Origin: Deltaproteobacteria bacterium
GTDB lineage: Bacteria > UBA10199 > SPLOWO2-01-44-7
Direction of reading: 5' to 3'
DNA length: 41,899 bases
Assembly: GCA_016213065.1 (NCBI GenBank)
Contig: JACRBV010000119.1
Span: 1-41,899, forward strand
Under the pieces are notes generated by a model. It was not told the DNA's origin. It did no database searches and saw only the letters and a list, made by a program, of their open reading frames with translations. Both the position numbers and the translations under genes were made by a program. This document shows positions 6,992 through 36,588 of this stretch, piece after piece; position 1 is the first letter of the stretch, and the number at the start of each line of letters is the position of its first letter.

Positions 6992-6992
6992 A

Positions 6993-7047: not shown

Positions 7048-7049
7048 AA

Positions 7050-7430: not shown

Positions 7431-7448
7431 AGTTGTTTTTTATATTTG

Positions 7449-8970: not shown

Positions 8971-8972
8971 CA

Positions 8973-16450: not shown

Positions 16451-17008
16451 TCATTCCTCCATGACAATTTTCGTTACTGTCAGTTTTGCCTTGACCACGG
16501 GTGATTCTTTATCTTTTGCACTCAATTTCGCTTTGACCACCCGCATCAGCTGAGACGAAGTTTCCACCTGATGTAAAAACCGGATCAACTGCGGCAGTTC
16601 CGTTTCCGCATCAATATCCACCGTATATTCCTTGTAAAATTCGCGGACCTTTCCTTCCTGCGGTTTCATGTCCGCCAGCGTAACCTCATTGGCCCTTGCC
16701 GTTTTTTCAATTTCGGAGAGCATCATGGCCGCCTCCTCCCCCTTGCCGGACGGCTTTCTGATAAATTTGCGGTATTCCTCAAAACGCTTCCCGATATCTT
16801 CCTTCATGGTGATGTTGATCATGTTCTGTTCCAGTTTTTTTTCCTCTTCAACGGTTCGTTCTTTGAGTGAAACATAAGAATCATACAAGGGCCTCGCCAC
16901 CAGAAAATCCGCGAGCAAAAACGCCAGAACGGCCGCTGTGCCCAGCGAAAGCATTTTCTCCCTTTTGGAGAGTTTGTCAAACCTTGCTTGTATATCTTTG
17001 ATATTCAT
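16451..17008 (-). CDS. PilO/GspM-like inner-membrane assembly protein
   Basis: 185 aa with an N-terminal coiled segment, a single TM (LSLGTAAVLAFLLADFLVA) and a ~110-aa periplasmic alpha/beta domain. Sits directly after the PilM-PilN gene. Called from architecture and position rather than a strong motif. Confidence 0.55.
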   Translation of the reverse strand: MNIKDIQARFDKLSKREKMLSLGTAAVLAFLLADFLVARPLYDSYVSLKERTVEEEKKLEQNMINITMKEDIGKRFEEYRKFIRKPSGKGEEAAMMLSEIEKTARANEVTLADMKPQEGKVREFYKEYTVDIDAETELPQLIRFLHQVETSSQLMRVVKAKLSAKDKESPVVKAKLTVTKIVMEE

Positions 17009-18463
17009 TTATAATCCGCACACAATTTCAAATTCAGACATGTTTTTGTCGCCCATTTTTTTCTTGCTCACCTGCTCGGATTTCACGGTCTTGAATATCT
17101 TCAGACTTTCCAGCGCCTTTGCATATTCAAAAACCTCGGACATCTCGCCCGCGTAACCTTTCAGGATGATTTTGTCTCCATCCAGATAATCGAGGGAATC
17201 AAAATAAACCGAATGAGGAATAGAGGCGGATATTTCCTTCAAGTATTTCAGAAAAGATTTGTCGGCATTCGTCCTGTTCTGGATCATTTTCAACTTTTTG
17301 ACCTTTCCCTCGACATCGGAAGCCGCTTCCGACGTTCTTTCAATATTTTTTTCCAGCTCTGAAATATAACGAAGCCGCTTGTAAAAATCCCCGCCGATGA
17401 AAAAAAGAATGGCGGCGATCAGCGCCAAAGAGAGCGCTCCGGTCAGCATGAGCTGTTTTCCCCTTTTTTTCACCAACCGTTTGAGCTTCACTTCTTCCGG
17501 GGTAAGATCAAAGAGAAGCCGGATCCCGCCGTTTCCAAATCCGATCAAAGATGCAATGGAGGGTGCGGATTCTTCCGGTCCGCGCGCAAAATCCACATCC
17601 ATGGCGGGATCCATCAGCTCCACGGACATTTCAAGGACCTCTTCCATTTTCTCCCTCAAACAGGAAAATTTTCCGACCGGTCCTGCCAGCACCGCCTTTT
17701 CAGGAGAATCAAGGCTGGCTTCATCCATCGTGAGCTTCACAACCTTTTTGAGTTCCTCGCAATATCTTCCGGCCGTATCCGCCCCAACCGGATCGGTCAG
17801 GGTAAAGGAAAATCCCCTCGAGAAAGCAAAAGCTCCGTTTTTGCAAAAAACCACATCCGTGGAAGTCGCGTCGGGTTCCACCAGCATAATCACGCCGCCT
17901 GACACAGCCAGATCGTTCTCTTTTTGCCTTTTCAGATACCAGCGCAAAAGCCCTTCCGAGCTGATGCCGATGCGATCCACTTTCAGACCGGATTGTTCCA
18001 AAATATCCAGTCTTTCATCCACGAACTTGCGTTGACAAAACGCGATGACGACGTCGCTGTATCCTTCTTCCTTGCGGCTTGCGGTCACCGCATAAGAGAT
18101 GACCACTTCGTTTCTGGAATACGGCGTCTGCTTGACCGCCTGCATCTTGACAATGTCGTCTATTTCGCCGTGTTCCGTGGATGGAATTTCGATCAGCCTT
18201 AAATTCACCATGTTTCTCGGCAGATATGTCGTCACATGCCGGCTTTGAAGCGCCACTTCCTTTAAAATTTTCGGAATGGCTTCGTGCAAGGGTTCGCGAA
18301 TCTCTGAAATTGATTTTGTCTTGAGATACGTTTCCGTTTTTTTCTTTCGGGTGAGGACCTGAAAAATTTTAAGGCAATCCGTGCCGATCTCCACGACAAC
18401 GCTTGCGCCGGATTTTTTAAAAAGATTCGTTTTAAAAAAATTCAAAAGATCCATTTTATTCAT
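17009..18463 (-). CDS. PilM-PilN fusion (GspL-like: actin-like ATPase fold + TM + PilN-type periplasmic domain)
   Basis: The N-terminal ~320 aa are PilM-like (VVVEIGTDCLKIFQV..., ...MLVEPDATSTDVVFCKNGAFAFSRGFS...). They are followed by a TM (LMLTGALSLALIAAILFFIGG), a coiled coil and a PilN-like C-terminal domain. Confidence 0.7.
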   Translation of the reverse strand: MNKMDLLNFFKTNLFKKSGASVVVEIGTDCLKIFQVLTRKKKTETYLKTKSISEIREPLHEAIPKILKEVALQSRHVTTYLPRNMVNLRLIEIPSTEHGEIDDIVKMQAVKQTPYSRNEVVISYAVTASRKEEGYSDVVIAFCQRKFVDERLDILEQSGLKVDRIGISSEGLLRWYLKRQKENDLAVSGGVIMLVEPDATSTDVVFCKNGAFAFSRGFSFTLTDPVGADTAGRYCEELKKVVKLTMDEASLDSPEKAVLAGPVGKFSCLREKMEEVLEMSVELMDPAMDVDFARGPEESAPSIASLIGFGNGGIRLLFDLTPEEVKLKRLVKKRGKQLMLTGALSLALIAAILFFIGGDFYKRLRYISELEKNIERTSEAASDVEGKVKKLKMIQNRTNADKSFLKYLKEISASIPHSVYFDSLDYLDGDKIILKGYAGEMSEVFEYAKALESLKIFKTVKSEQVSKKKMGDKNMSEFEIVCGL

Positions 18464-19427
18464 TCCATGATTTTAATTCACCGTTTCGATTGACGACAAA
18501 ACCAATGCTTTTTCTGCGTTGTCCTCCAAAATCAATGACCAGATTGCCCCGATAAACATCGGAACGCACGCCCAAAAGTCCCAAAGACACCGCCCGTTCC
18601 AACTCCGCCTTATCTTCACCGCCAAGTCCCAAGGTTTCCGCGATAAGGCCTATCTGCAACGTCTGCTCAAAAATCACATTTTTTCTTGAACCGGCAATAG
18701 TTTGGGCCCCACCATATGAAAGGCCGAGACAGCGAAGGGTATCCACATCCGCCGTATTGATATTGACTTGTCCCAAACCATAAATCGTCACTGCCCCCCG
18801 GATTTTTTCAAAAACTTTCGCGGACATTCCGGGAATCCACCAAAGTTCTTCCATCGCCTCCAAATCCGCGTTTTTGCACGAGTAGGGTTTTTGGAGCTTC
18901 TCGCATTCTTCCGTCTCATTTTCCTTTCCACCCTCTTTTACCACATTGGCATCTCGCCAATCCACAAGACTCAAAGAAAAATTTTCAGCTTCAGACGGCG
19001 TCATTTGTCCCATGATCTGAAACACCTTCGAAAGAACATCGGCCGGTACACGGTTGATATTTATTTTTCCCTCTTCATCCGTCAGGCCGAAGCGTCCTTC
19101 CCTCCCCAACAGACTGTAGTGTACGCCATCAAAAGAAATATCTTTAAACCGAGTCTTGTCATCCGCCCATCCCTCTTCAATCCCGTCATAGCCTTGGGTT
19201 TTGTCGTCTTTGATAATGCTCAAGGCCTCTTCAAACACCCGGCCGGAAACAGCAAACGACTTGGCCATCCATTTTATCCTGTTGGCCGCGTCACTGTTCG
19301 CGGACACAAGTCCTCCCACCGCCACGGCCAAAATCGCCAAAAATGTGACGGCCCAAAGGCTTAAAATAGCTATGGACCCTCGCTCCCCGCGATGCTCACG
19401 GAAAAACGATTGTAAATTGTCTTTCAT
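18456..19427 (-). CDS. gspK: T2SS minor pseudopilin GspK-like
   Basis: N-terminus ERGSIAILSLWAVTFLAILAVAVGG. Helix-hairpin-helix-like segments (INRVPADVLSKV, VNINTADVDTLRCL) are characteristic of GspK. Confidence 0.65.
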   Translation of the reverse strand: MKDNLQSFFREHRGERGSIAILSLWAVTFLAILAVAVGGLVSANSDAANRIKWMAKSFAVSGRVFEEALSIIKDDKTQGYDGIEEGWADDKTRFKDISFDGVHYSLLGREGRFGLTDEEGKININRVPADVLSKVFQIMGQMTPSEAENFSLSLVDWRDANVVKEGGKENETEECEKLQKPYSCKNADLEAMEELWWIPGMSAKVFEKIRGAVTIYGLGQVNINTADVDTLRCLGLSYGGAQTIAGSRKNVIFEQTLQIGLIAETLGLGGEDKAELERAVSLGLLGVRSDVYRGNLVIDFGGQRRKSIGFVVNRNGELKSWNE

Positions 19428-19950
19428 TGTTGTCCGCCATAACGGTTTTTAAACGCACGGCCTGTGGGGCCTTATTTTCTTTCCAAGCCGTTTGCCATAA
19501 ATGCGAATCCTGATATTCGAAGATGATTTTTTTGACGCCCTGAATTTCTTTCTGGCATTCTTTTTTAATCCCTTTGATCCAATCGGCATAGGAGGTTTTT
19601 TCGAAGCAAAGGCTTTGAGATGCCGCATCATAATAATAGCGGATGCGCCCCGGTTCCTGATGGAGCGCCTCTCCCTCTTTGTCCGTCTTTACCAAAACAA
19701 GGCCCGGAAAAGAAATTTCGTTTTCCGCGCCCTCAAATCCGATGGCCTTGAAGGCAAAACTGTTCCGTAAATTTTTCTGCATTTTTTCCAGAGCCAAAAA
19801 TAGATGCATCTCGCTGGCACCCCGATCCAGACGTTTCCAAATGTGGACTCCCGCGGAGAGGGAGGAATAAATCGCGAGGGCAATCACCGCCACAATGGAA
19901 ACGACGAGGAGCATTTCAATCAGCATGAAGCCGTTTTTATTTTCTGACAT
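19396..19950 (-). CDS. Minor pseudopilin (GspJ-like), prepilin-type N-terminal methylation motif
   Basis: MSENKNG/FMLIEMLLVVSIVAVIALAIY is the class III signal (G/F-x-L-x-E). Confidence 0.65.
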   Translation of the reverse strand: MSENKNGFMLIEMLLVVSIVAVIALAIYSSLSAGVHIWKRLDRGASEMHLFLALEKMQKNLRNSFAFKAIGFEGAENEISFPGLVLVKTDKEGEALHQEPGRIRYYYDAASQSLCFEKTSYADWIKGIKKECQKEIQGVKKIIFEYQDSHLWQTAWKENKAPQAVRLKTVMADNNERQFTIVFP

Positions 19951-20308
19951 AAGTTGCCGCCGTCAGTTTGCGGCCGCTTCCTTTTTTTTCCACTTCAACT
20001 TCCAGTTCGTAGAGATCCTTTGGCAGTGCCTTTTTGATTTTTGTCGTCCATTCCCAATGGCCTTCCTTTCCGCTTTGACTCGCGGATATTCCAGAATCGA
20101 AGCGCATTCCCAACCGGCCCTCCGCCATTTTCTGATGAAGAATCCAAAAACCTTCGGCCGTGAACTGCGCTCTTTTATACGCCTCCAACGCGGTATGGTA
20201 ACCCCCGATAATAGGAATCAGCCCAACCGCCAAAATGACCACACTCAAAAGAACTTCAATGAGTGTAAAGCCCTTGCAATTCTTAGTCCCAGTTTCCAAT
20301 GTCGTCAT
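19937..20308 (-). CDS. Minor pseudopilin (GspI/H-like), prepilin-type N-terminus
   Basis: ...NCKG/FTLIEVLLSVVILAVGLIPIIGG. 123 aa. Confidence 0.65.
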   Translation of the reverse strand: MTTLETGTKNCKGFTLIEVLLSVVILAVGLIPIIGGYHTALEAYKRAQFTAEGFWILHQKMAEGRLGMRFDSGISASQSGKEGHWEWTTKIKKALPKDLYELEVEVEKKGSGRKLTAATYVRK

Positions 20309-20690
20309 TGCTCTCTACCCCATCCCTCCCCGTGGAAAAAAGATCATAACCGTTTGGATTATGCGTGCCCGGGGATTTATATTTATAAGGCCTGCCCCAT
20401 GGGTCCACCGGTTTGTTCGTCAAATACGGTCCGTTCCACTGAGAACCGTTGGATCCGGATGGGGCATGAAACAGGATTTCGAGTCCTTCTGCCGTGGTGG
20501 GAAAAGCCCCCATGTCGATTTCGTACATCTTCAGGCCCGTAGCGATGTTGGCGCGGATGTCCGCTTTCGCGGCCGTCATTTTTGCCTTTTCGGACCGCCC
20601 GGTGAGTCTTGGAACAACCATGGCGGCCAAGGCCGAAATAATGGCGACAACCAGAAGAATTTCAATCAGTGTAAAACCTTTTTTGTTCAT
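20283..20690 (-). CDS. gspG: T2SS major pseudopilin GspG
   Basis: MNKKG/FTLIEILLVVAIISALAAMVVPRL...AKADI...YEIDMGAFPTTAEGLEIL...GPYL...DPWGRPYKYKSPGTHNPNGYDLFSTGRDGVESNDDIGNW is the textbook GspG pattern, including the C-terminal Ca-binding DG...DDI.NW. SD GGGAGG lies upstream. Confidence 0.9.
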   Translation of the reverse strand: MNKKGFTLIEILLVVAIISALAAMVVPRLTGRSEKAKMTAAKADIRANIATGLKMYEIDMGAFPTTAEGLEILFHAPSGSNGSQWNGPYLTNKPVDPWGRPYKYKSPGTHNPNGYDLFSTGRDGVESNDDIGNWD

Positions 20691-21901
20691 ACGCCTCCCA
20701 TCACATCCATTTGGAATACAGGCAATAACATGGCAAAGACAATGAATCCGATAATACCGCCCACGGCCAAAATCAGCACCGGTTCGATAAGCGTCGTCGA
20801 GGATTTCAGCAATCCTTCAATCTCTTTTTCATACGTATCTGAAAGATAGGAAAGCGTCTTTCCCAGATGACCGCTTTCCTCTCCCACCGAAACCATGTCC
20901 AGCGCCATGGGAGGAAAATAGCTGATTTTTTTTAGTGCCACGGCAAGAGACGCCCCCTTGACTACCAAGTCCCCTTCCACTTCCTTAAAACGGTTTCCGA
21001 TGATTTCGTTGTCCACCGTCGCGGCAGACAACGGTACGGCCTTGAAAAGAGGGACACCATGATCCAAAAGAAGGCCCAGTGTCCTGCTGAAATTCAAAAC
21101 CGCGCTCTTAATCACAAGCGACCGGACAAAAGGAATTTTCAATTTTATTTCATCGAAGAAACGTTTTTTGGAAGACTGACCGCTCAGACGTTTGACAAAA
21201 GCGATTGCAAGGAGAACAAATCCCAAAATCCAATACCAGTTTCCGGAAAGAAAATGGCTGATCCCCAAAACCACGGCGGTAGGCCACGGCAGGTCCTGCT
21301 GATTGCTTAAATAAACTCCCAAAAGCCTCGGCAAAAAATAGGTGAGAAGAACAAATACGGTGAGGCTCCCCATCACCAAAATAAAAACAGGATAAACAAG
21401 CGCTCCCCAGATTTTTCCGCGAATTTCCTCGTTTCTTTCCTGATGGAGTGCTAACTTTTCTATCATTTCTCCCAAAACACCGCCGGACTCGCCGCCGCGC
21501 ACCATGTTGACCAAAAGGGGCGAAAAAACTTTGGGATTCTGCTCAAACGCCCCGGAAAGCGTTAATCCGGCACGCACGGAGGCAGACAGGTCCGCGGTGA
21601 GATTTTTCATACCGCCTTTGCGCGCCTGTCCCTCCAAAAGGACAAGAGCCTTGAGGACGGGGACGTTTCCCTTGAGGAGGTTCGCCAAATTTCGCATGAA
21701 GAGAAGAATTTCTTTTCTTTTGACGACAATGTCCGCGCGTTTTCTCGCGGAACTTTTCCCCGATCCGTCACTGGGCTTCAAGCGAATGGGCACCAATCCT
21801 TGGGCATCCAAAAGTTTCACGGCTTGATCTTCACTGGACGCCTCTAATTCTCCCTCAACCACTTCTTTGGGTCCCTTTTTTGCCTTGTAAATATATTTCA
21901 T
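20687..21901 (-). CDS. gspF: T2SS/T4P inner-membrane platform protein GspF/PilC
   Basis: 404 aa with two GspF-type repeats (FMRNLANLLKGNVPVLKALVLL...; FSRTLGLLLDHGVPLFKAVPLSAATVDNEII...). C-terminal TM LILAVGGIIGFIVFAMLLPVFQM. Confidence 0.9.
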   Translation of the reverse strand: MKYIYKAKKGPKEVVEGELEASSEDQAVKLLDAQGLVPIRLKPSDGSGKSSARKRADIVVKRKEILLFMRNLANLLKGNVPVLKALVLLEGQARKGGMKNLTADLSASVRAGLTLSGAFEQNPKVFSPLLVNMVRGGESGGVLGEMIEKLALHQERNEEIRGKIWGALVYPVFILVMGSLTVFVLLTYFLPRLLGVYLSNQQDLPWPTAVVLGISHFLSGNWYWILGFVLLAIAFVKRLSGQSSKKRFFDEIKLKIPFVRSLVIKSAVLNFSRTLGLLLDHGVPLFKAVPLSAATVDNEIIGNRFKEVEGDLVVKGASLAVALKKISYFPPMALDMVSVGEESGHLGKTLSYLSDTYEKEIEGLLKSSTTLIEPVLILAVGGIIGFIVFAMLLPVFQMDVMGGV

Positions 21902-21903
21902 AA

Positions 21904-22069
21904 AAATGCCTATGCATTTGAATCCCGTTCTGTCATTCCCGCGTAGGCGGGAATCCAGAAGCCCTTAAAATCACTGGATCCCCGCCGGAGTTTACCCCTG
22001 CGGAGGCAGGGGCGGGGATGACAAAAGAGGGCAAAAGTTTTCTTATAGGACTCAAGTGCATATGCATTT
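21904..22069. mobile_element. MITE-like palindromic element, copy 1 (166 bp), filling the gspE-gspF intergenic space
   Basis: Terminal inverted repeats are AAATGCCTATGCATTTGAATCCCG ... AGGACTCAAGTGCATATGCATTT. Two internal hairpins are GTCATTCCCGCGTAGGCGGGAATCCAG and CTGGATCCCCGCC...GGGGCGGGGATGAC. It is flanked by the direct repeat TTCATAA (21897-21903 and 22070-22076). Confidence 0.85.
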
Positions 22070-22070
22070 T

Positions 22071-23792
22071 TCATAAATCCATTCCGATTTCCGTGACGCG
22101 GGCTACTTCTTCGGGCGTCGTGAGACCTAATAAAACTTTTGACCATCCGTCTTCGACCAATGTTGTCATCCCTTTTTCTATCGCCATTTTTTTGATTTCA
22201 CCAGCCGGGGCTCGTTTCAATATCAACGATCTCACCTCATCCCCCACGGGTAAAAATTCATAAATGGCCGTGCGCCCCGCGTAACCGGTATTGCCGCATT
22301 CTTCACAACCACGCCCGCGGCAAAAGCCGGCTTTGACCGGACGCTTTGCGTTCAAGGCTGAAACTTTCGCGAGCCATTGGCTGGATTCCTCCGCAGAAAT
22401 TTTTTCCTTGCAGGCAGGGCAAATCATGCGGACAAGCCTCTGGGCCACAAAGGCCTCAACGGAAGAGGCAATCAGAAACGGGTCCACCCCCATATCCACA
22501 AGCCTTGCCACGCCGCTTGCGGCATCGTTGGTATGCAGTGTGGAAAAAACAAGGTGTCCCGTCAGGGCCGCCTGAATCGCAATTTTGGCCGTTTCCGCGT
22601 CCCGCACCTCACCGACCATGATAACATCCGGGTCGTGCCGCAGGATGTTTCGAAGGGCGCGCGCAAACGTAAGTCCCACGGCGGCATTCGCCTGAATCTG
22701 AGTGATCCCCCCGATTTCATATTCGACCGGATCTTCCACCGTAATGATTTTTCTCTCCCGCGAATTGATTCTGGAAAGACAGGTATATAATGTGGTGCTC
22801 TTGCCGCTACCGGTGGGGCCCGTTACAAAAACAATCCCATGAGGCTTGGCGATTAACTGCTCAAAAATTTTCAGGGCTTCTTCCTGCATCCCCAGATTTT
22901 CAAAACGAAACTCCGCCTTGGAAGGTAAAAGTCTTATCGCCAAATCTTCGCCGTGTCTTGCCGGCATGCTGGAAACGCGCAGGTCAAATTCCTTGGGGCC
23001 AATCTGGATGCGGCTTCGGCCGTCCTGAGGGAGGCGCTTCTCCACGATATCCATCCCCGCCATAATCTTGATGCGGGAAAGGATGGCGGGCGCCAGATAC
23101 CGGATGTCCATGGGCAGATGGGCGTCGGATAAAACGCCGTCCACGCGGTAACGCACCGCGATTTTTCCACGGGCCGGCTCCACATGGATATCGGTGGCTC
23201 CTCTACGAACAGCCTCTTCCAAAATTTGATTGACCAGTTTGACTACCGTGGCATCTTCCGAAGATTCCGAATCCCCGCTGATCTCCGAAACTTCCTCTTT
23301 TGCCGAAATATCCGAAATGGAAACCGAGTCTTCGTCTTCCGTGAGAATTTTCTCAACTGTTTCCGCGCCGACGCCGTAATGTTTGCGGATGGCTTCCGCG
23401 ATATCTTTCCTGCAGGCCAGAACAACCCGCGGATGCAGACCCACATTCACTTCAACGTCATCGAGAGGCCAGTTGTTTAATGGGTCGTTCACCGCGAGGG
23501 TCAGCACGTTTCCTTCCCGTTTTACGGGCATTATTTTGTAATAAGTCACCAGTTTGATGGGCAGGGCCTTGACCGCTTCCGGGGAAATTTCGGTTTTTTT
23601 AAGATCAATAAAATCGATGTGCAACTGTTCCCCCAAGGCAAGGAGCACATTTTTCTCCGTCACCTTTCCCATTTTTTCCAGTATTTCGCCGATGGGCCTC
23701 CTGCTTTTTTGCTGTTCCTTGAGAGCGGTGTCCACATCTTCCTTGGTCACCAGCCCTTTTTGCACCAGAATTTCTCCCAAACGTAGCCTCAT
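22071..23792 (-). CDS. gspE: T2SS/T4P assembly ATPase GspE/PilB with an MshEN-type N-terminal domain
   Basis: Walker A GIVFVTGPTGSGKSTTLY, Asp box ITVEDPVEY, Walker B DPDVIMVGEVRD, His box LTGHLVFSTLHTN. Tetracysteine CPACK...CEECGNTGYAGR. The N-terminal RLGEILVQKGLVTKEDVDTALKEQ matches the MshEN motif. Confidence 0.9.
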   Translation of the reverse strand: MRLRLGEILVQKGLVTKEDVDTALKEQQKSRRPIGEILEKMGKVTEKNVLLALGEQLHIDFIDLKKTEISPEAVKALPIKLVTYYKIMPVKREGNVLTLAVNDPLNNWPLDDVEVNVGLHPRVVLACRKDIAEAIRKHYGVGAETVEKILTEDEDSVSISDISAKEEVSEISGDSESSEDATVVKLVNQILEEAVRRGATDIHVEPARGKIAVRYRVDGVLSDAHLPMDIRYLAPAILSRIKIMAGMDIVEKRLPQDGRSRIQIGPKEFDLRVSSMPARHGEDLAIRLLPSKAEFRFENLGMQEEALKIFEQLIAKPHGIVFVTGPTGSGKSTTLYTCLSRINSRERKIITVEDPVEYEIGGITQIQANAAVGLTFARALRNILRHDPDVIMVGEVRDAETAKIAIQAALTGHLVFSTLHTNDAASGVARLVDMGVDPFLIASSVEAFVAQRLVRMICPACKEKISAEESSQWLAKVSALNAKRPVKAGFCRGRGCEECGNTGYAGRTAIYEFLPVGDEVRSLILKRAPAGEIKKMAIEKGMTTLVEDGWSKVLLGLTTPEEVARVTEIGMDL

Positions 23793-23876
23793 AAAAAAAT
23801 TAAAAATTAAAAATAAAAAATTAAAAATAAAAAATCAAAAATAAAAAATTTAGAAATCAAAATTTAAAATCCCCAA
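23793..23876. repeat. A-rich heptad/hexad array (family A-like, no inverted partner) forming the whole atpD-gspE spacer
   Basis: AAAAAAATTAAAAATTAAAAATAAAAAATTAAAAATAAAAAATCAAAAATAAAAAATTTAGAAATCAAAATTTAAAATCC... Nearly GC-free for 84 nt. Confidence 0.8.
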
Positions 23877-26145
<2,269 letters not shown>

Positions 26146-26148
26146 AAA

Positions 26149-27225: not shown

Positions 27226-27259
27226 TTGATCATAAAGAAATATCGAAGCTTCATTTTTT

Positions 27260-27997: not shown

Positions 27998-28007
27998 AAG
28001 AGCTCCT

Positions 28008-29759: not shown

Positions 29760-29760
29760 G

Positions 29761-30477
29761 TTACGGTTTTACGTTTGCAATGGCTTCTTCATTCATCTTC
29801 ACTTTTTCCTCAACAAAGGTGTCCATGATAAAACGGTTGACGGCCTCGTCTTTCAATTTTTTGTTGTATTCAAAAGATACCTGCTCCTTCACTTTTTCAA
29901 ACGGCTTTTTTTCGTATTTACCCTTGTTGGCCTCATAGTATCTTAAAAGGTCTTCCTCACGCGCTTCAATTTTTCCAAGTTTTCTTTCCAGAAGTTTTTC
30001 AGCAAGTATGCCACGCCGTGCCTGCTCCAGAAGAAAAACAATGTCTCTGTCTTTTTCTAATCCTTCTCTTTTCGCCCTTTTTGCCAGAGCAGTGCGGGCA
30101 ACATATTGGCGGATGAAATCCGTTCTCCATTCTTTGCTCGTTTCAAAATTTTCCTTAAGAAACCGGTTGAGTTTGTCCGCGGCCTGCTTTATTTCCGAGA
30201 AAGTTATCGCTTCCTTTCCGATGGTCGCAATAACTGCTTCTCCCGTCGCCGGTTTTTTCCCGGAGCAGGAGACGGGAAACAGAGAGGCAGAGAGGCAGAG
30301 AAGCAGAGAACACCATTTTTTATTCAAATGCCTATATCCTTGAGTCCCGTAAGAAAACCTTTGCTCTCTTTTGTCATCCCCGCGCAGGCGGGGATCCAGT
30401 GATTTCAATGGTTTCTGGATTCCCGCTTTCGCGGGAATGACAGAACGGGATTCAAGGATATAGGCATTTTTATTCAT
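29761..30477 (-). CDS. SurA-N/PpiD-like periplasmic chaperone-type lipoprotein, N-terminus interrupted by a MITE
   Basis: The mature part (...ATIGKEAITFSEIKQAADKLNRFLKEN...LLRYYEANKGKYEKKPFEKVKEQVSFEYNKKLKDEAVNRFIMD) resembles SurA N-terminal/PpiD chaperone domains. The lipobox LFPVSC follows (M/L)NKKWCSLLLCLSAS. Codons 4-53 of the ATG-30477 ORF (NAYILESRSVIPAKAGIQ...) are MITE plus duplicated target. An alternative TTG start lies at 30327. Confidence 0.55.
   Translation of the reverse strand: MNKNAYILESRSVIPAKAGIQKPLKSLDPRLRGDDKREQRFSYGTQGYRHLNKKWCSLLLCLSASLFPVSCSGKKPATGEAVIATIGKEAITFSEIKQAADKLNRFLKENFETSKEWRTDFIRQYVARTALAKRAKREGLEKDRDIVFLLEQARRGILAEKLLERKLGKIEAREEDLLRYYEANKGKYEKKPFEKVKEQVSFEYNKKLKDEAVNRFIMDTFVEEKVKMNEEAIANVKP
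30326..30469. mobile_element. MITE-like palindromic element, copy 2 (144 bp, opposite orientation)
   Basis: Its reverse complement aligns with copy 1 along the whole length except a ~22-nt deletion in the second hairpin. It is flanked by the direct repeat TTATTC (30320-30325 and 30470-30475). Confidence 0.85.
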
Positions 30478-30478
30478 A

Positions 30479-31030
30479 TTATTTTTTCAATGCTCCTTCC
30501 AGTTCCTGAATTTTGGTCTGTAAATCGGCTTTTTCTTTTTCCAGTTGAGCGACCAGATCACTGGTTTCCGGTTTGACATTCATTCCTTCCTTGACCGCGC
30601 GCGCATCGGCAATGCGCTGGATCTCGCCACGGAGTTCGTCCAGTTTTAAGAGCAGGGCTCTTCTCTCTTTGTTTAAATTTTCAACCATCCGGTTGGCCTC
30701 GGCCAAATCTTTTTGGACATCCTGCCTATTCACATTTTTTTTAAGCGCCGCGATAGAGGCCTGATTGACTTCCGCATCGCTCTGAAGATTTCGGACAGCC
30801 ATGAGGAGCCGGTCCCTCTCCGCCTGAAGGGCCTTGGCGAAATCCTCTTTTTTTTGCAGATCCAGTTCCATAATGCGATTTTTAACCAAAAGATCCGCCG
30901 TCCCTTTAAAAGGACCGATGGTAACCGCAAACGCTATTGCCACCGTCAAGCCTGCCGCATAAACCCCCAGCAAAATCACGGCCGTTTTTGCCGCATTGAT
31001 TTTACCGAACAGATTTTTGAAGAAATTCAT
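30479..31030 (-). CDS. Single-pass membrane coiled-coil protein, unknown function
   Basis: ORF trimmed to ATG 31030, which has a strong SD (AAGGAGGTGTTTATG). Sequence is MNFFKNLFGKINAAKTAVILLGVYAAGLTVAIAFAVTI (TM) followed by ~140 aa of heptad-like K/E/L/Q coiled coil. The architecture resembles ATPase b or PilN/GspB-type stalk proteins. Confidence 0.5.
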   Translation of the reverse strand: MNFFKNLFGKINAAKTAVILLGVYAAGLTVAIAFAVTIGPFKGTADLLVKNRIMELDLQKKEDFAKALQAERDRLLMAVRNLQSDAEVNQASIAALKKNVNRQDVQKDLAEANRMVENLNKERRALLLKLDELRGEIQRIADARAVKEGMNVKPETSDLVAQLEKEKADLQTKIQELEGALKK

Positions 31031-31048
31031 AAACACCTCCTTGCAGAA

Positions 31049-31123
31049 GGACCATGGACCATGGACCAACTGCTTTTTCTGGTTTTTAGTCCATGGTCTA
31101 TGGTCCATAGTCCATGGTCTTGT
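31049..31123. repeat. Family G heptad hairpin, cargo-free, intergenic
   Basis: Left arm GGACCAT GGACCAT GGACCAA, then the loop, then right arm GTCCATG GTCTATG GTCCATA GTCCATG GTCTTGT. Positions 31049-31066 pair with 31089-31106, 18 bp with one G-U. The loop begins with AAC after GGACC and ends GGTTTTTA before GTCC, as in the 4490-4599 copy. Confidence 0.85.
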
Positions 31124-31130
31124 ACTTAAA

Positions 31131-31502: not shown

Positions 31503-31575
31503 TCCCGCGAAGGCGGGAATCCAGAAAAGCTGAAAAAGACTGGATCCCTGCCTTCGCAGGGATGACAAAACGGGG
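31491..31575. mobile_element. MITE-family core element, copy 3 (short form lacking the outer TIRs)
   Basis: CCAGTTTGTCATTCCCGCGAAGGCGGGAATCCAGAAAAGCTGAAAAAGACTGGATCCCTGCCTTCGCAGGGATGACAAAACGGGG. It has the same two hairpins as copies 1 and 2. Confidence 0.75.
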
Positions 31576-31594
31576 TTTTTAGAAAGATTTTTTT

Positions 31595-33586
31595 TTAATC
31601 GTCCCATCTGCGCCCCTTTGGTTTTTTTCTTTTCTCCGGCGTTTTCGTTTTTCCCTTTTGTTCCACAATATCTTGTTCCCGAATACCTTGTGCTTGGACA
31701 ATGGGCGGTAGAGGAGCAATGCCCGGCAGGGTTTCATCACCGCTCATCAAGTGCGGAGTCAAAAGAACCACCAGTTCTTGTTTGGACATTTTGTCATTGG
31801 TGGAGCGAAAGAGATTTCCGGCCACGGGAATCCGTGAAAGCCCCGGAATACCTGAACGTGTTTTATTCCTCGAAAGTTGCATCAAGCCGCCGATCAGCAC
31901 CGTGGCACCATCTTTCACCATCACCACCGTATCGGCATTGGTTGTTTGCACAATGGGAATCTGGTCCCCCTGAGAGGTTGTCAGAAACCGCGATACATTG
32001 CTGATCTCGGGACGGATTTTCATCGTGATGAAACCATCATCGTTGATATGCGGCGTGACAAAAAGAGATACCCCCACATCAATAAAAGTAACATTTTGCG
32101 CCGTGGTGGTAGTGGACTGGCTCTGTGTAATGCTGGAGGTCGTATAGGCCTCCTTGGTCCCCACCATTATTTTGGCCTCCTGATCGTTGACCGCGGAAAT
32201 ATGGGGCGTGGACAAAATGCGGGTGTCACCGAAGGTCTCCAAAAATTTAAGAATTGCTCCCGAGTTGGAATAAGAGGAGGTAGTCACCCCTTTTGAATCC
32301 GTTGTCTTGGTCTCGGCAATGGATCCCGCAATAATCTGTCCGAAAGAGCTCAAGCCGGAGGGAAAAGTCTGCTGGAGTGTTGTTCCAAACACCTTTGCCC
32401 ATTCCACGCCGCTTTGATACTGATCGCCGAGCGTAATCTGAATGATCTTGGCCTCGATCATGACCTCCTGCGTTTTGGTGTCAAACGCGGTAACGACCTT
32501 TTTGATTTCTACCAGATTGAGCGGCAAATCCGAAACGACCAGTTTGTTGGTGCGTTCATCCACGTAAACCTTGCCAATTTCTTTGGTGAGAACGGGTGTA
32601 ATTTTTTCCGCCATTGTTTTCGCCTTCGCGTATTGAAGACTGAAAACCTCTGTTTGCGTCACGGGCATGCGGACCACGGAGGGCAGTTCCTCGTGACGGA
32701 TGACCTGTTCCATTTCTATTATCTTTTGTGGTGTATCCATCAGGACAACCGTTCCCGTGGAATCGTCATAGACAATGCGCCCCACATCGCTCTTCACATT
32801 TTCTAGCATGGCACCGATATTTTTGGCCGAGGCATACTGCAAACGGATGATTTTCGTCTCCCGCTGATCGTAAAACTGTTTTCCATACAGGGCCTTGTAT
32901 TCCTCTTCCGTCATCACCTGCATGATATTTTCCTTTAAATTGTAGGCCAGACGATGGGTGGAAAGAATAATATCCAGCGCGTCTCGAACGGTGACATTAT
33001 TCAAAAGGAGGCTCACGGTCCCCGTGATGTTTTTTCCTCCGGCGATGTTCAGGTTGCCCTTGATGGCAAGAAATTTGAGGACGTCCAGAATGTCCATGTC
33101 GCGCAGATCAAGGGATATTTTGGTGTCCAGCGTGGGGATTTCACCTTCCGCGGAAGGAGGAACCAGTTCTCCCCCTCCCATCACGGCCGGTTTTTTTGCC
33201 GTTTTTTCTTCCTCCGTTTTGGGTTTGTCCGCACCGCCGGAAGCCGGACCGGAAGGAGTTTGGACAGGAGGAGTTTGGGAAGCGGGAGTTTGAGAAGAGG
33301 GCTCCTGTTGCGCCGGAGGATTTTGCACGGCAGTTCCCCCAATGGGAGAAGAAGAGGTTGATGAAGTCCCTTGAACTCCCGTGCCGCCGATGGGCGATGG
33401 AGAAGGCTGTGCCGGCGCGGGTGCCGGTACCGGTGTCGTTGTCGTTGTTGTTGTCGTCGTTGTCGGCGCCGGCGTTGGTGTGGGCGCCAGTATCGTTTTG
33501 GGTGTTTCCGCGGATCTTATATCCTCCGCGACAGACGCAAAACACGCCAAAGAAACCACGGCGAAAAAAAACAATATCTTTTTCAC
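31595..33586 (-). CDS. Secretin, PilQ/GspD family
   Basis: Signal peptide MKKILFFFAVVSLACFASVA, with a GTG start at 33586 and AAGGAG 6 nt upstream. It has a ~110-aa Thr/Pro/Ser linker, an N0/STN-like domain (ISLDLRDMDILDVLKFLAIKGNLNIAGGKNITGTVSLLLNNVTVRDALDIIL) and secretin_N repeats. The C-terminal secretin domain reads ILSTPHISAVNDQEAKIMVG...TVVMVKDGATVLIGGLMQ...GIPGLSRIPVAGNLFR...ELVVLLTPHL. Confidence 0.9.
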   Translation of the reverse strand: MKKILFFFAVVSLACFASVAEDIRSAETPKTILAPTPTPAPTTTTTTTTTTPVPAPAPAQPSPSPIGGTGVQGTSSTSSSPIGGTAVQNPPAQQEPSSQTPASQTPPVQTPSGPASGGADKPKTEEEKTAKKPAVMGGGELVPPSAEGEIPTLDTKISLDLRDMDILDVLKFLAIKGNLNIAGGKNITGTVSLLLNNVTVRDALDIILSTHRLAYNLKENIMQVMTEEEYKALYGKQFYDQRETKIIRLQYASAKNIGAMLENVKSDVGRIVYDDSTGTVVLMDTPQKIIEMEQVIRHEELPSVVRMPVTQTEVFSLQYAKAKTMAEKITPVLTKEIGKVYVDERTNKLVVSDLPLNLVEIKKVVTAFDTKTQEVMIEAKIIQITLGDQYQSGVEWAKVFGTTLQQTFPSGLSSFGQIIAGSIAETKTTDSKGVTTSSYSNSGAILKFLETFGDTRILSTPHISAVNDQEAKIMVGTKEAYTTSSITQSQSTTTTAQNVTFIDVGVSLFVTPHINDDGFITMKIRPEISNVSRFLTTSQGDQIPIVQTTNADTVVMVKDGATVLIGGLMQLSRNKTRSGIPGLSRIPVAGNLFRSTNDKMSKQELVVLLTPHLMSGDETLPGIAPLPPIVQAQGIREQDIVEQKGKTKTPEKRKKPKGRRWDD

Positions 33587-34308
33587 ATCAACTCCTTGTT
33601 TTTGCCGCCATACTCCACCAAAACTTTGTCTTTGGAAATCTCCTTGATCTTGATTCCCTTAAACTGCTGATCTTTTTTTAAAAAATAAGTCCTGCCGTCG
33701 GCTTTGTCCCGAATCATCGCTTCGGGATATTCCCCCCACGCAATTCCCACCAGTTGCAAATCGCCTAAAATTTTATCCGCTCCGGCGGCCGATACGGTCG
33801 GTATGTTCTCCTCTTTTTTGGGTAATTCCCCCGGCCGGAAAAGACTTCTCTTCCCGGCATCTTTTAAATACATTTCAACGGATTCGAGAAGGGCGATGTT
33901 GCGTCCGCCCGATGGCGTATTGTGTTTGGCCACCCTTGCATAAACATCCTTGATATCCGATTTCAGCGCAAAAACATTGACCACAGAGGCAATCACAACA
34001 AGACCGATAACAATGGCCAGTCCCTTGTTGACCACGCCGAGATCAAAACACGGACGGGACAATCCCTCTTTAAATTGAAAAAACCAGTCCTGAGCTTTGC
34101 CAACGGTTCCTTTCAGGGCCGCTATCTTCAGCCACGATTTTTTTTCCGTCTCCGGTTCACCGCCGCTGTCGATCACTTGCAAAAGTTTTTCCTCCGCCGT
34201 CAATTTTTCCTGCTTCGAAAATTCTTCCACCGAAGTTTTTTCCTGCGGATTTTCTCCGCTGACAGCGTCAAACATTCCCTGAACAGGATTTTTTTTATCT
34301 TCCTCCAT
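33583..34308 (-). CDS. GspC/PilP-like inner-membrane secretin-coupling protein
   Basis: Cytoplasmic acidic N-terminus and a TM (GLAIVIGLVVIASVVNVFAL). The C-terminal beta-rich domain LQLVGIAWGEYPEAMIRDKADGRTYFLKKDQQFKGIKIKEISKDKVLVEYGGKNKEL resembles the HR domain of GspC/PilP. The stop overlaps the secretin GTG as GTGA. The track start at 34314 is a TTG; ATG 34308 is used. Confidence 0.55.
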   Translation of the reverse strand: MEEDKKNPVQGMFDAVSGENPQEKTSVEEFSKQEKLTAEEKLLQVIDSGGEPETEKKSWLKIAALKGTVGKAQDWFFQFKEGLSRPCFDLGVVNKGLAIVIGLVVIASVVNVFALKSDIKDVYARVAKHNTPSGGRNIALLESVEMYLKDAGKRSLFRPGELPKKEENIPTVSAAGADKILGDLQLVGIAWGEYPEAMIRDKADGRTYFLKKDQQFKGIKIKEISKDKVLVEYGGKNKELM

Positions 34309-35164
34309 CTTCAACTGGCTCCTGTTCTTTGGACGCGTTAAGGATGCGCTCTTCCTGAAGCACCATTTCCTGAACGATTTTGCGCGTCACCTCTTCTTTG
34401 TTTTCCATGACCAATTTTTCCAGAACATTGTGGCAAAGGAGCGTTACCTGTCTCGGATAACCCTGCGTATGTCGATGGATCTCTTCCATGGCTTCAGAAG
34501 CAAAAAGCGGTTTCTTTGCGTTGTAGCCCGCCTGCAGGAGGCGAAAATTAATCAGCTCCGTCATCTCTTCCAGCCCAAGGGGATTGAGCATGTATTTCAG
34601 ACTGATCCGGTCCCACAAGTTTTTGAGACGCGAAATTTTCGGCAAAAGCTCCAATTGCGACATGAGAACCAGCTGAAGGATTTTGTGCTCGTTGGTTTCG
34701 TAATTGAGCAGGGTGCGCAAAATTTCAAGAGAGGTCTTACTCAATTTCTGGGCCTCATCAATTAAAAGGACAATCGTCTTTTTTTCCTCCACCCCTCTTT
34801 GAAAAAGATTTTTTTCCAGAATATCGAAGTAATGAACGGTCGAGATGGGCTTTTGTGGAAGCTCTATATGAAAAGATTCCATGAGTTTTTCTAAAAATTC
34901 CTCCTCGGATTTGAAAACCGGATTGAGAAGGATGTGAAAATCGCAAGACGGCTCCTTGGAAAGCATTTGGTAGAGCCTCCGGCTCAGTGTGGTCTTTCCG
35001 GTGCCCACGTCTCCAAGGATGAGACTCAAACCCCGCTTGAGGCGGAGAGCGATTCGCAGGCGATACAGCGCCGCCTTGTGATCCCTCGCTTCATAAAAAA
35101 ACGCAGGATCAGGACTTGTGGAAAACGGCTCGTTCGCAAGCCCCAATACCTTATAATAACTCAT
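34295..35164 (-). CDS. ExeA/GspA/MshM-like AAA ATPase
   Basis: MSYYKVLGLANEPFSTSPDPAFFYEARDHKAALYRLRIALRLKRGLSLILGDVGTGKTTLSRRL... with Walker B IVLLIDEAQKL is the typical ExeA/MshM N-terminal ATPase. There is no peptidoglycan-binding domain. ATG 35164 overlaps the alpha-2 stop as ATGA. Confidence 0.8.
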   Translation of the reverse strand: MSYYKVLGLANEPFSTSPDPAFFYEARDHKAALYRLRIALRLKRGLSLILGDVGTGKTTLSRRLYQMLSKEPSCDFHILLNPVFKSEEEFLEKLMESFHIELPQKPISTVHYFDILEKNLFQRGVEEKKTIVLLIDEAQKLSKTSLEILRTLLNYETNEHKILQLVLMSQLELLPKISRLKNLWDRISLKYMLNPLGLEEMTELINFRLLQAGYNAKKPLFASEAMEEIHRHTQGYPRQVTLLCHNVLEKLVMENKEEVTRKIVQEMVLQEERILNASKEQEPVEDGGR

Positions 35165-36588
35165 GCCTGAATTCCCTCCAACGCCCCGCGTATCTCGGAC
35201 GTCATCTTTTTTTTCATGGCAATCTCTTTTAAAAGTCCCGGCTTTTGCTTTTCAACAACCTGCCTGACATTTCGTTTGAACAGGGATACCTGATCCGGTG
35301 TCAGGGCATTTAATTTCCCATGACGATGCAGGTAAAGTAGCACGACCTGCTCCTCCATGGCAACGGGGTTTGCCTTGTCCTGTTTCAAAAGTTCCGTAAG
35401 AATCCTTCCTGTTTTTAATTTGTCTCCCATCTCACCGGAATCTCCGGCCTTGATTTTTGTCAGGCGCTCCAGTTCCCTATACTGTACGTATTCCAGACGG
35501 AGCATGGCGGAGAGTTCCCGAACGGCCGGCCACTGCACCTTGTTTCCCACGCGTGACACGGAGAGCCCAAGGTCCACGGCCGGTTTAAAACCGTGACTAA
35601 AAAGTTCCGCGTTCAAATAAATTTGTCCGTCCGTCATCGAAATAAGATTGGAGGGAATATAGCCGGTGACATCACCCTGAAGGGTGTCCACGACCGGCAA
35701 AAAAGTCATCGAACCGCCGCCCCTTTCGGACCCTAGTTTTCCGGCGCGTTCAATCATCTGGGAATGGAGATAAAAAATATCCCCCGGATAGGCATCGCGC
35801 CCCGGAAATCGTCCCAAAAGAAGGGAGAGCTGGCGGTAAATCCACGCGTGTTTGGTGAAATCATCAAAGGCCACCAAAACATCCCGACCCTTGTTCATGA
35901 AATGCTCTCCCATGCCAGCGGCCGCGTAGGGAGCCAGATACTGCTGGCCCGGAGGACTGGAAGCCGTTGCGGAAACCACAAGAGTGTATTCCATGGCGCC
36001 ATGCCGTTCGAACAAACGCATCACTCGGGCCAATTGAGCCTTTGTCTTTCCGATACAGCAATAGATGCAAAGGACATTTTTTCCTTTTTGATTAAGGATG
36101 ATGTCCGTCACGATAGTGGTTTTGCCGGTCATCCGGTCTCCGATGATGAGCTGGCGCTGTCCCTTGCCCAAGGGGATCATCGTATCGAGAATTTTGATGC
36201 CGGTTTCCAAGGGCTCATCGAGAGGCACACGCTCCAAAACGGACGGGGCCTCAGCAAAAAGAGGACGGAATTCCGTGTTTGAGTCGCTTCTATAATTAAG
36301 CGCTTCCTCGCTTTCTCCCAGCGCATTAACCACCCGGCCGATCAGCCAATCCCCGGTCGGCACTTCAAACGATTCCAGTCTTGTATATGCCTTGTCCCCC
36401 GCCTTGATTGTCCCTTTTTCCTTGAGCAAAAGGACAAGGACATCCTCTTTGTCAAATCCCATGATCATGCCAAGGGAATTGTCCATGAAATAAATTTTCT
36501 GACCGTTCATGCAGGAAGAAAGGCCCCTGATCTTGACGATGGATTTTTCCACCGCCCTCACCTCGCCGTATTCTTTGAAGTGTAACAT
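35161..36588 (-). CDS. atpA: F-type ATPase alpha subunit, paralogue 2 (475 aa)
   Basis: ...VPTGDWLIGRVVNALGES..., P-loop GDRMTGKTTIVTDIILNQ, VLCIYCCIGKT, LVAFDDFTKHAWIYRQLSLLLGRFPGRDAYPGDIFYLHSQMIERAGKL, ISMTDGQIYL, GLSVSRVG. By eye it is roughly half or more identical to paralogue 1. SD GAGGAAAAG lies before ATG 36588. Confidence 0.9.
   Translation of the reverse strand: MLHFKEYGEVRAVEKSIVKIRGLSSCMNGQKIYFMDNSLGMIMGFDKEDVLVLLLKEKGTIKAGDKAYTRLESFEVPTGDWLIGRVVNALGESEEALNYRSDSNTEFRPLFAEAPSVLERVPLDEPLETGIKILDTMIPLGKGQRQLIIGDRMTGKTTIVTDIILNQKGKNVLCIYCCIGKTKAQLARVMRLFERHGAMEYTLVVSATASSPPGQQYLAPYAAAGMGEHFMNKGRDVLVAFDDFTKHAWIYRQLSLLLGRFPGRDAYPGDIFYLHSQMIERAGKLGSERGGGSMTFLPVVDTLQGDVTGYIPSNLISMTDGQIYLNAELFSHGFKPAVDLGLSVSRVGNKVQWPAVRELSAMLRLEYVQYRELERLTKIKAGDSGEMGDKLKTGRILTELLKQDKANPVAMEEQVVLLYLHRHGKLNALTPDQVSLFKRNVRQVVEKQKPGLLKEIAMKKKMTSEIRGALEGIQA

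Follow-up and report, generated by a model that had tools for sequence, protein, structure and literature searches.

The 41,899-nt contig JACRBV010000119.1 of a Deltaproteobacteria bacterium (assembly GCA_016213065.1), the whole of which we call the window, carries at positions 16451–36588 of its minus strand a cluster in which genes for an F-type ATPase are interleaved with genes for a machine resembling type II secretion systems (T2SS) and other type-4-filament systems. We consider it likely that this cluster represents one conserved operon family, in which a divergent, non-respiratory F-type ATPase is paired with a T2SS-like/type-4-filament machine and serves as an ATP-hydrolysing, non-chemiosmotic motor. 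The ATPase and secretion genes are linked across phylum-level distances, and subunit a is absent from the loci examined. The pairing is a known locus class, and the window is a variant arrangement of this class, which was published in 2023.

Gene calls made with Pfam and NCBIfam (Table 1) reproduced the gene content and minus-strand order given in a preliminary description of this DNA, save that the tetratricopeptide-repeat label it attached to a 158-residue protein has no Pfam support. That description had offered two readings of the cluster, namely a dedicated ATPase module tied to an envelope apparatus and a scrambled atp operon whose synteny is incidental. The first agrees with what we find, a conserved co-directional cluster in 83 loci without subunit a, with truncated epsilon and delta subunits and with an alpha subunit that lacks its arginine finger; the second is contradicted by this same synteny and by ATPase features that hold across the whole family.

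The 83 distinct loci were collected by context look-ups of alpha-2 and gamma homologues, which are abundant in metagenomes, and by a scan with a gamma alignment that used one genome per GTDB species. Each locus was annotated with the window's own proteins and covers 10 kb either side. The conserved co-directional cluster consists of a gene that we call X, the F-like ATPase genes, GspE-F-G, pseudopilins, GspK, a PilM-PilN fusion and PilO. GspE lies directly after beta in 71 of the 73 loci with room downstream, at a median gap of 16 nt. Among the 37 loci that span the whole cluster, X is found in 35, c, b-delta and beta in 36 each, GspE in 37, GspF and GspG in 33 each, and the PilM-PilN fusion in 34. 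The metagenome-assembled genomes from which the loci come are labelled Omnitrophota, Kiritimatiellia, Lentisphaerae/Victivallales or Verrucomicrobiota, and thus belong to at least two phylum-level groups. Because the beta-GspE adjacency holds over such distances, the linkage is not incidental.

Two gene orders can be distinguished. Type A runs X, alpha-2, alpha-1, epsilon, c, b-delta, gamma, beta, GspE and onward, and type B runs X, epsilon, c, b-delta, one or two alphas, gamma, beta, GspE and onward. Type B is the order of all 18 Omnitrophota-labelled loci, and type A that of all loci labelled Kiritimatiellia, Lentisphaerae or Victivallales and of nearly all those labelled Verrucomicrobiota. 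The window's order is type-A-like, yet the nearest matches of its beta (70–79% identity) and GspE (54–55%) lie in Omnitrophota-labelled loci and in the unlabelled loci L001 and L089, by which its taxon would probably be related to Omnitrophota. Between the window's two alpha genes sits a secretin module (ExeA, GspC, secretin, lipoprotein, coiled-coil and SurA-like genes), an arrangement that we found again only in L088, a relative with 75% identity. The two adjacencies that the preliminary description had singled out therefore recur in relatives, beta-GspE in the 71 of 73 loci and alpha-2-ExeA, in the same order and with the same ATGA overlap, in L088. Two further genes of the window are lineage-specific insertions, a Schlafen/AlbA_2 gene between X and alpha-2, absent from that position in all related loci, and a DUF1016/YhcG nuclease gene between b-delta and gamma, likewise absent there in related loci. 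In the loci with Kiritimatiellia, Lentisphaerae/Victivallales and Verrucomicrobiota labels, which belong to the Planctomycetes–Verrucomicrobia–Chlamydiae (PVC) group, a Peptidase_MA_2 gene also separates GspF from GspG, and a MORN-repeat protein is encoded after PilO. In locus L086, pntAB-like transhydrogenase genes (8350–10380) follow the F-like genes in the place of GspE.

Subunit a was sought in the window and in the 10 kb either side of the 83 loci. Escherichia coli AtpB (phmmer --max, filters off, E ≤ 10) had no match in any of them, and E. coli c, b, delta, gamma, epsilon, alpha and beta all matched in the same search. Pfam ATP-synt_A had no match in the window. A scan for transmembrane (TM) segments identified GspF as the only conserved polytopic protein in the loci. 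A subunit a hidden among unlabelled open reading frames (ORFs) was considered and rejected, since the 12 ORFs with at least four TM segments are non-conserved singletons, including TauE, MlaE, prepilin peptidase and PntB.

The ring subunit c of the window aligns with E. coli c. It keeps the RNP loop and the Glu of helix 2 and has no GxGxGxG motif. In 6 of 76 otherwise conserved c orthologues (L001, which is a close relative of the window, L012, L047, L061, L068 and L083) the helix-2 carboxylate is replaced by G, M or Q, so that at least three residue states occur, and the operons around these genes are conserved. The b-delta fusion begins with a TM helix, continues as a b-like coiled coil and ends in the C-terminal domain of delta, the only domain of delta that it contains. 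Its BLAST matches cover residues 7–108 of E. coli b and residues 108–177 of E. coli delta, and the N-domain of delta is missing family-wide. Both alpha-2 and alpha-1 lack about 22 N-terminal residues of canonical alpha, again throughout the family. In canonical enzymes, these alpha residues bind the delta N-domain and so join the stator to F1.

The two alpha subunits of the window are 53% identical and differ at a catalytic position. Alpha-2 keeps the arginine finger (SVSRVG) and has the P-loop GDRMTGKT, while alpha-1 has lost the finger (SVSIIG), with Ile at the position of E. coli R376. In related loci with tandem pairs, the first alpha bears the Arg finger in 54 of 54 cases and the second has I, V or T in 57 of 57; the single alphas of 17 loci all bear it (17/17). 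Including the window, this gives 72 Arg-bearing alphas, all first or single (72/72), and 58 Arg-less alphas (58/58). Identity is 57–59% within each group and 44.5% between groups, which indicates that the duplication is old. In a neighbour-joining tree with E. coli as the sole outgroup, the Arg-bearing alphas form one clade (73 tips, 1 intruder) and the Arg-less group is paraphyletic; we rejected this rooted tree as a means of dating the duplication, since a single distant outgroup is too weak for ordering. At 438 aa, alpha-1 of the window is the smallest Arg-less alpha among 58; the others are 486–527 aa long, and it is about 50 C-terminal residues short. The start of epsilon overlaps its stop codon, so that the short alpha-1 is not a frameshift remnant.

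Judged from its sequence, beta should be catalytically intact: the P-loop, the catalytic Glu and Arg and the Walker B Asp are conserved in 71 of 71 orthologues, and the window has LFFMDNVYR. The central stalk is less conventional. Gamma is 19% identical to E. coli gamma, and its family comprises 79 clusters at 50% identity (E ≤ 1e-30) among 1.84 billion representatives. The C-domain of epsilon is missing family-wide, at a median family length of 77 aa. In NCBIfam, alpha-2 and beta score highest on the canonical atpA and atpD models and pass their cut-offs, whereas gamma (70 bits against 194), epsilon and c fall far below theirs. PDB searches gave 410–487 bits for ordinary F1, 335 for the Mycoplasma G1 beta and 135 for the ATPase of the type III secretion system (T3SS); the best matches of alpha-2 were bacterial F1 alpha subunits, and those of beta to ordinary F1 beta reached 415–487 bits.

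The secretion half of the cluster has the parts of a type-4-filament machine with some substitutions. The N-terminus of GspE matches the MshE-type motif that binds cyclic di-GMP (MshEN; NF053729, 58.2 bits against a cut-off of 38), which suggests control of the machine by this messenger. GspE and GspF stay below the NCBIfam cut-offs for both machine types (GspE 603 bits against 630 and PilB 574 against 676 for the former; GspF 304 against 424 and PilC 262 against 700 for the latter), and GspG passes its own (135.6 bits against 88.85). Matches of the K, I and J pseudopilins are weak to moderate and that of GspC is weak, and no GspH was identified in the window's cluster with Pfam or NCBIfam. 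PilM, PilN and PilO domains are present, with the major subunit of GspG type; a PilM-PilN fusion takes the place of GspL and is conserved in 34 of the 37 full-length loci. The N-terminal region of the secretin is rich in Thr and Pro. Neither PilT nor a prepilin peptidase was found in the window. This part of the cluster resembles a canonical T2SS or type IVa pilus (T4aP) in its secretin, GspE with MshEN, GspF, GspG, I/J/K-like pseudopilins, GspC-like protein, PilM/N and PilO/GspM, and differs from it in the PilM-PilN protein and in the GspE and GspF scores. To our knowledge, rotary-ATPase subunits are part of no described T2SS or T4aP.

Gene X, which encodes a bitopic protein of the envelope, precedes the ATPase genes: in 52 loci phmmer places an X homologue of about 440 aa, to which the C-terminal half of the window's X corresponds, immediately upstream of the first gene for the ATPase. 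This homologue has a signal peptide, and an AlphaFold 2 model (mean pLDDT 70) shows two repeats of a beta-sandwich with a three-helix bundle, and a C-terminal TM anchor. A Foldseek search of the PDB with this model gave no match (best E 0.03, TMq ≤ 0.16). The homologue search made for the model found only two relatives, P0241 and P0242, because Gly-rich low-complexity words swamped it. X of the window has an N-terminal extension encoded by 252-nt and 45-nt tandem repeats (40627–41877) with units of about 15 aa of the form KTDTI(D/N)W(T/A)(D/N)VTG, and its ORF probably continues past the end of the window. We also considered X as a substitute for subunit a that would supply a stator arginine. 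The motif TTWRIIF, where the C-terminal TM helix begins, is invariant in the window and the two homologues, but W[RK]II occurs in only 11 of 53 X proteins, the consensus is TTWLII, and no membrane arginine is conserved across the 53; this candidate was rejected. Just upstream of X, and on its strand, there is often a gene for a very large surface-type protein, as in L004 (1–4282) and 14 further loci (family U1, median length 1346 aa); one example has Laminin_G_3 domains and exceeds 3246 aa. These proteins are candidate substrates or partners of the machine.

Loci of this class have a published precedent, so that the statement in the preliminary description that no such system had been described does not stand. 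Seymour et al. 2023 (Nat Microbiol, PMC10066038) report "symbiotic" non-respiratory F-type ATPase genes adjoining T4aP clusters in Omnitrophota. They define the locus by its alpha subunit, record it in every class of Omnitrophota and in 56 of 111 Velamenicoccia species, V. archaeovorus among them, and place the ATPase and pilus sets within 10 kb of each other in 57 of 66 contigs. A role in attachment or motility is proposed there by analogy with the Mycoplasma type 2/3 ATPases, with which their tree groups the Omnitrophota alpha. The text and supplements of that paper, as searched, are silent on c, on b-delta, on the absence of subunit a and on the alpha paralogues. A study of 176 complete Omnitrophota genomes (bioRxiv 10.64898/2026.06.07.730766) lists alpha and beta in 125, a recognisable gamma in 30, and subunits of V/A-type ATPases in 70–99% of the rest of class Gorgyraeia. 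The scarcity of gamma and the presence of V/A-type enzymes fit a picture in which the divergent F-like set is accessory and the housekeeping enzyme is a separate one. West-Roberts et al. 2023 describe T2SS-like loci adjoining giant genes of Omnitrophota, which the large proteins upstream of X echo. The term combinations that we tried returned no literature on an occurrence in PVC bacteria or on links between F-type ATPases and T2SS, and a search on the V. archaeovorus ATP synthase returned no expression data for these subunits. In the literature searched we did not find the lack of subunit a, the carboxylate losses, the finger-less alpha, the domain losses, protein X, the phylum-split gene order or the distribution in PVC bacteria.

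The window resembles the published Omnitrophota loci in that F-type alpha, beta and gamma genes stand beside GspE/PilB-F-G type-4-filament genes, here all on one strand with 84 nt between beta and GspE (within 10 kb in the published set), and in the identity of its beta and GspE to labelled loci with the same linkage. It is unlike them in having the secretin module between its alphas and two inserted genes, and in a type A order that is otherwise seen in PVC-labelled loci. The Mycoplasma Type 2/3 F1-like set, which includes the G1 unit of M. mobile gliding (Beven et al. 2012, PMC3369863), is a second point of comparison: it too is a non-respiratory alpha/beta/gamma/epsilon-like set in the service of the cell surface or motility, and it too lacks subunit a. 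That set is a seven-gene cluster with three lineage-specific proteins and without an Fo-type c or b, whereas the window has c and b-delta and lacks the three Mycoplasma-specific proteins (3 and 12 TM helices). By hidden Markov models, alpha-2 scores highest on canonical atpA, which it passes at 511 bits, and fails the Mycoplasma models (MMOB1660, 411 against 600; MSC_0619, 301 against 520); beta behaves alike (MMOB1670, 408 against 850; MSC_0618, 387 against 570; atpD, 559).

The tightness of the cluster's junctions varies. The TGA of alpha-2 and the ATG of ExeA share the ATGA at 35161–35164, the SurA-like stop and the alpha-1 start are spelled TAA-c-ATG (29759–29763), an 84-nt (AAAAATY)n array separates the beta stop from the GspE start, and most of the remaining junctions overlap or measure at most 34 nt. 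These three junctions had been quoted exactly in the preliminary description, as had the lack of a strand switch, since all credible genes called from 16080 to 41828 are on the minus strand. Its claim that the cluster contains no GC-rich hairpin was mistaken. Three palindromes of 100–180 nt, resembling miniature inverted-repeat transposable elements (MITEs) or repetitive extragenic palindromes (REPs), lie within the cluster in both orientations, one in the 169-nt gap between GspE and GspF (Table 1) and the others at 30326–30484 and 31469–31570. The first folds at −80.8 kcal/mol (z = −6.9). The N-termini listed for the SurA-like protein and for the 158-aa protein (in the latter about 40 codons) are translated MITE-like sequence; the real starts lie further downstream, and these two junctions are less tight than listed. 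Read as an ORF, the MITE-like element yields peptides of the type IPAKAGIQ...LDPRLRGDD. The MITE/REP-like copies could serve as attenuators or stabilisers of the mRNA.

The A/T heptad array recurs three times in a separate pilus locus of the window (6994–7047, 7436–7488 and 8864–8970). According to the ORF coordinates, the arrays adjoin the TadZ/TadA, RcpA and GspE genes, and could act as promoters, UP-like elements or leaders. A special role of the array in coupling beta to GspE can be ruled out by these three other copies and by the median gap of 16 nt in related loci. A second heptad array, (GGACCAT)n or its complement, is found at 3944–3968, 4490–4584, 11437–11468, 11828–11863 and 31049–31119, in or near several gene starts, where it gives rise to spurious GPW/HGPW N-terminal translations.

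We suggest that the missing subunit a, a carboxylate that several lineages can dispense with, the remodelled joint between stator and F1, and the V/A-type ATPases recorded in the literature together mark this ATPase as something other than the cells' chemiosmotic enzyme. Its most likely role is to power the co-encoded envelope machine, as a motor or energiser that hydrolyses ATP. The complex would hydrolyse ATP as a motor, rather than act as an ATP synthase or ion pump. In such a scheme b-delta would tether the alpha/beta hexamer to the inner membrane, and the hexamer would turn gamma-epsilon and the c-ring; incorporation of the finger-less alpha-1 would make the hexamer asymmetric. The co-encoded endopilus or secretion apparatus might use the output for the dynamics of its platform or filament, or for the export of the large neighbouring surface proteins, and the candidate coupling partners would be X and the GspF/PilMN/PilO platform. 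The fully specified version, in which a rotary motor without subunit a, built of an asymmetric alpha-1/alpha-2/beta hexamer and a minimal b-delta stator, delivers mechanical work to the T2SS-like endopilus through X or GspF/PilMN/PilO, is a tentative proposal that we think may well prove wrong in its particulars.

Several observations weigh against a non-chemiosmotic motor. The RNP loop of c is invariant (76/76) and its helix-2 Glu is present in 70 of 76 orthologues (92%); a b-type stator, anchored in the membrane through b-delta, is kept. The simplest explanation of these two traits is a rotor that is coupled to ions and turns against an a-type partner, and subunit a may be encoded elsewhere in the genome, beyond the 10-kb flanks. 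Alpha-2 and beta, which pass the atpA and atpD equivalog cut-offs, appear close to ordinary F1. Two loci, L076 and L086, carry the ATPase genes without GspE downstream. The MITE-like hairpins and the 84-nt A/T array could split transcription of the window's cluster. Finally, expression, assembly, ATPase activity and contact with the secretion machine are predictions from the genes.

The main rival explanation is that the genes encode an ion-translocating F1Fo ATP synthase or ATPase of the cell, with subunit a elsewhere, and that the operon merely co-regulates energy supply with the envelope machine. Split atp operons with atpB apart occur in other bacteria, and the conserved features of c, the anchored stator and the best PDB matches of alpha-2 and beta to ordinary bacterial F1 would all be expected of such an enzyme. 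The window likewise shares with canonical F1Fo the catalytic residues of beta and the helix-2 Glu of c. It departs from it, however, in lacking subunit a, in one finger-less alpha, and in reducing delta to its C-domain and epsilon to its N-domain. No subunit a occurs within 10 kb either side in 83 loci, 6 of 76 c orthologues have lost the carboxylate in independent events with operons otherwise intact, the delta N-domain and the N-terminal tail of alpha are both missing, and the Arg-less alpha is fixed family-wide; moreover, published work describes the clade as non-respiratory and records V/A-type ATPases for most of these lineages. We therefore regard an ion-translocating enzyme as unlikely.

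The N-ATPase (atpDCQRBEFAG; Dibrova et al. 2010, PMC2881411) offers an ion-pumping parallel, as a second, laterally mobile F-type operon with an odd gene order and no separate delta gene. The type B order (epsilon-c-b-alpha-gamma) resembles that of the N-ATPase minus Q, R and a. The best NCBIfam match of b-delta is likewise the N-ATPase b subunit (TIGR03321), end to end at 51 bits against a cut-off of 224.7, and this match and the type B order hint at a possible evolutionary link. The N-ATPase is, however, an ion pump with subunit a, AtpQ and AtpR, none of which has a gene in the window or the loci, and the window proteins fail its cut-offs (alpha 491 against 750.5, beta 500 against 752, b as above).

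Still less likely, in our view, is a complex that handles substrates or activates a gate in the manner of FliI-FliJ-FliH, rather than a torque motor, in which the hexamer and a gamma-like stalk would energise the export platform and b-delta would act as a FliH-like tether. A functional analogy for how the ATPase might work is offered by the flagellar/T3SS complexes (FliI6-FliJ-FliH and SctN-O-L), which set an F1-related ATPase, a gamma-like stalk and a b/delta-like tether into a nanomachine for protein export. Pallen and colleagues are said to have described FliH/YscL in 2006 as b-like plus delta-like, which is the architecture of b-delta. The ATPase genes also lie directly upstream of those for the export ATPase and platform in 71 of 73 loci, with large surface proteins often encoded just upstream of X. 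The flagellar and T3SS ATPases are, however, homohexamers without c-ring or epsilon, both of which are kept here, and the partner here is a type-4-filament/T2SS-like machine. Alpha and beta reach only 160–207 bits on the FliI/SctN models, against cut-offs of 380–690 (161–201 bits for the FliI/YscN subfamily, cut-off 379.5), and are true F-type subunits. Furthermore, T2SS substrates traverse the inner membrane by Sec or Tat, so that a cytoplasmic unfoldase would have no obvious substrate.

An incidental adjacency of a scrambled or decaying atp set to pilus genes could explain the two insertions (Schlafen-like and DUF1016), the three MITE-like elements and the short alpha-1 of the window, but is very improbable given the linkage in 71 of 73 loci across phylum-level distances, the intact ATPase ORFs, the beta catalytic residues (71/71) and c RNP loop (76/76), and the overlapping or tight junctions.

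The remainder of the window includes a separate Tad/Flp-type pilus locus (2259–11131, minus strand), so that two type-4-filament systems are present (Table 1). Between it and the T2SS-like cluster lie a homologue of the 23S rRNA intervening-sequence protein (11384–11851) and an AAA_14/DUF4143 ATPase gene (12335–13654, plus strand), a family of which another member lies upstream of X in L002. Scans of the window with Rfam and for tRNA detected no RNA genes.

Table 1. Features of the window (coordinates in nt; the ATPase–secretion cluster in the order of its reading on the minus strand, followed by the Tad locus).
Feature	Coordinates	Strand	Basis and remarks
Protein X	37995..41828	-	phmmer: conserved C-terminal ~520 aa; first gene of the operon family; 1277 aa; may run past window end
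Schlafen/AlbA_2 + HATPase_c_4 protein	36596..37975	-	Pfam
Alpha-2, F-type	35161..36588	-	PF00006 238 bits; NCBIfam atpA 510.8 against cut-off 484.45
ExeA-like AAA_22 ATPase	34295..35164	-	Pfam; same order and overlap in L088 (about 75–76% identical)
GspC/PilP-like bitopic protein	33583..34314	-	Weak T2SSC match, Pfam E 4.9e-4; one TM segment; L088 orthologue
Secretin, GspD/PilQ type	31595..33586	-	Pfam Secretin 164 bits; STN + Secretin_N; L088 orthologue 78% identical
Small putative lipoprotein, 158 aa	31131..31607	-	No Pfam match; L088 orthologue
Single-TM coiled-coil protein	30479..31108	-	TM scan; listed N-terminus covered by GGACCAT heptad repeats
SurA_N-like putative periplasmic chaperone	29761..30477	-	Weak: Pfam SurA_N_3 E 1.7e-5, below cut-off
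Alpha-1, F-type, 438 aa	28443..29759	-	Pfam; no arginine finger
Epsilon, beta-sandwich N-domain only, 76 aa	28220..28450	-	Pfam PF02823; overlaps alpha-1 by 8 nt
c subunit, 70 aa, two TM helices	28008..28220	-	Pfam PF00137 32 bits; TM scan
b-delta fusion	27260..27997	-	Pfam OSCP, residues 173–236 = profile positions 104–168; NCBIfam
DUF1016/YhcG PD-(D/E)XK nuclease	26149..27225	-	Pfam
Gamma, highly divergent	25279..26145	-	Pfam 95.6 bits; NCBIfam 69.8 against cut-off 194
Beta	23877..25274	-	NCBIfam atpD 559 bits against cut-off 463
A/T heptad array, 84 nt	23793..23876	-	Between beta and GspE
GspE/PilB-type assembly ATPase	22071..23792	-	Pfam T2SSE 441 bits
MITE/REP-like palindromic element	21889..22069	-	GspE-GspF gap
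GspF/PilC platform protein	20687..21901	-	Pfam T2SSF x2; NCBIfam GspF 304 bits
GspG major pseudopilin	20283..20690	-	Pfam T2SSG 105.6 bits
GspI-like minor pseudopilin	19937..20308	-	Pfam N_methyl + weak T2SSI
GspJ-like minor pseudopilin	19396..19950	-	Pfam N_methyl + weak T2SSJ
GspK-like minor pseudopilin	18456..19427	-	Pfam T2SSK_1st
PilM-PilN fusion	17009..18463	-	Pfam PilM_2 + PilN; actin-like cytoplasmic domain + bitopic PilN; counterpart of GspL
PilO/GspM-like protein	16451..17008	-	Pfam T2SSM + PilO
TadE/G-like protein	10014-10847	-	Tad locus
RcpC/CpaB	8973-9812	-	Tad locus
RcpA secretin	7459-8973	-	Tad locus
TadZ-TadA fusion ATPase	5150-7009	-	Tad locus
Two TadB/C-like T2SSF proteins	3053-5153	-	Tad locus

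Rotary F-type ATPases are the textbook chemiosmotic enzymes, with two accepted exceptions in the export ATPase of T3SS and flagella and the gliding motor of Mycoplasma. The loss of subunit a, the retention of a c-ring with a cut-down stator, the fixation of a finger-less alpha and the near-constant linkage to GspE, GspF and GspG look like a rotary motor re-purposed for envelope mechanics. If this is true, the motor without subunit a would be the third independent recruitment of an F1-type enzyme for non-chemiosmotic work, after the two exceptions above, and the first to keep the c-ring; it would be ancestral to the clade of loci common to Omnitrophota and PVC bacteria. The bacteria of these lineages are ultra-small, host-dependent or predatory, and attachment and secretion machinery is central to how they live. 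The anatomy of the complex raises the hypotheses that the c-ring carboxylate is dispensable, that alpha-1 makes the hexamer asymmetric and that X is a partner of the ATPase, and it makes this system a good target for structural work.

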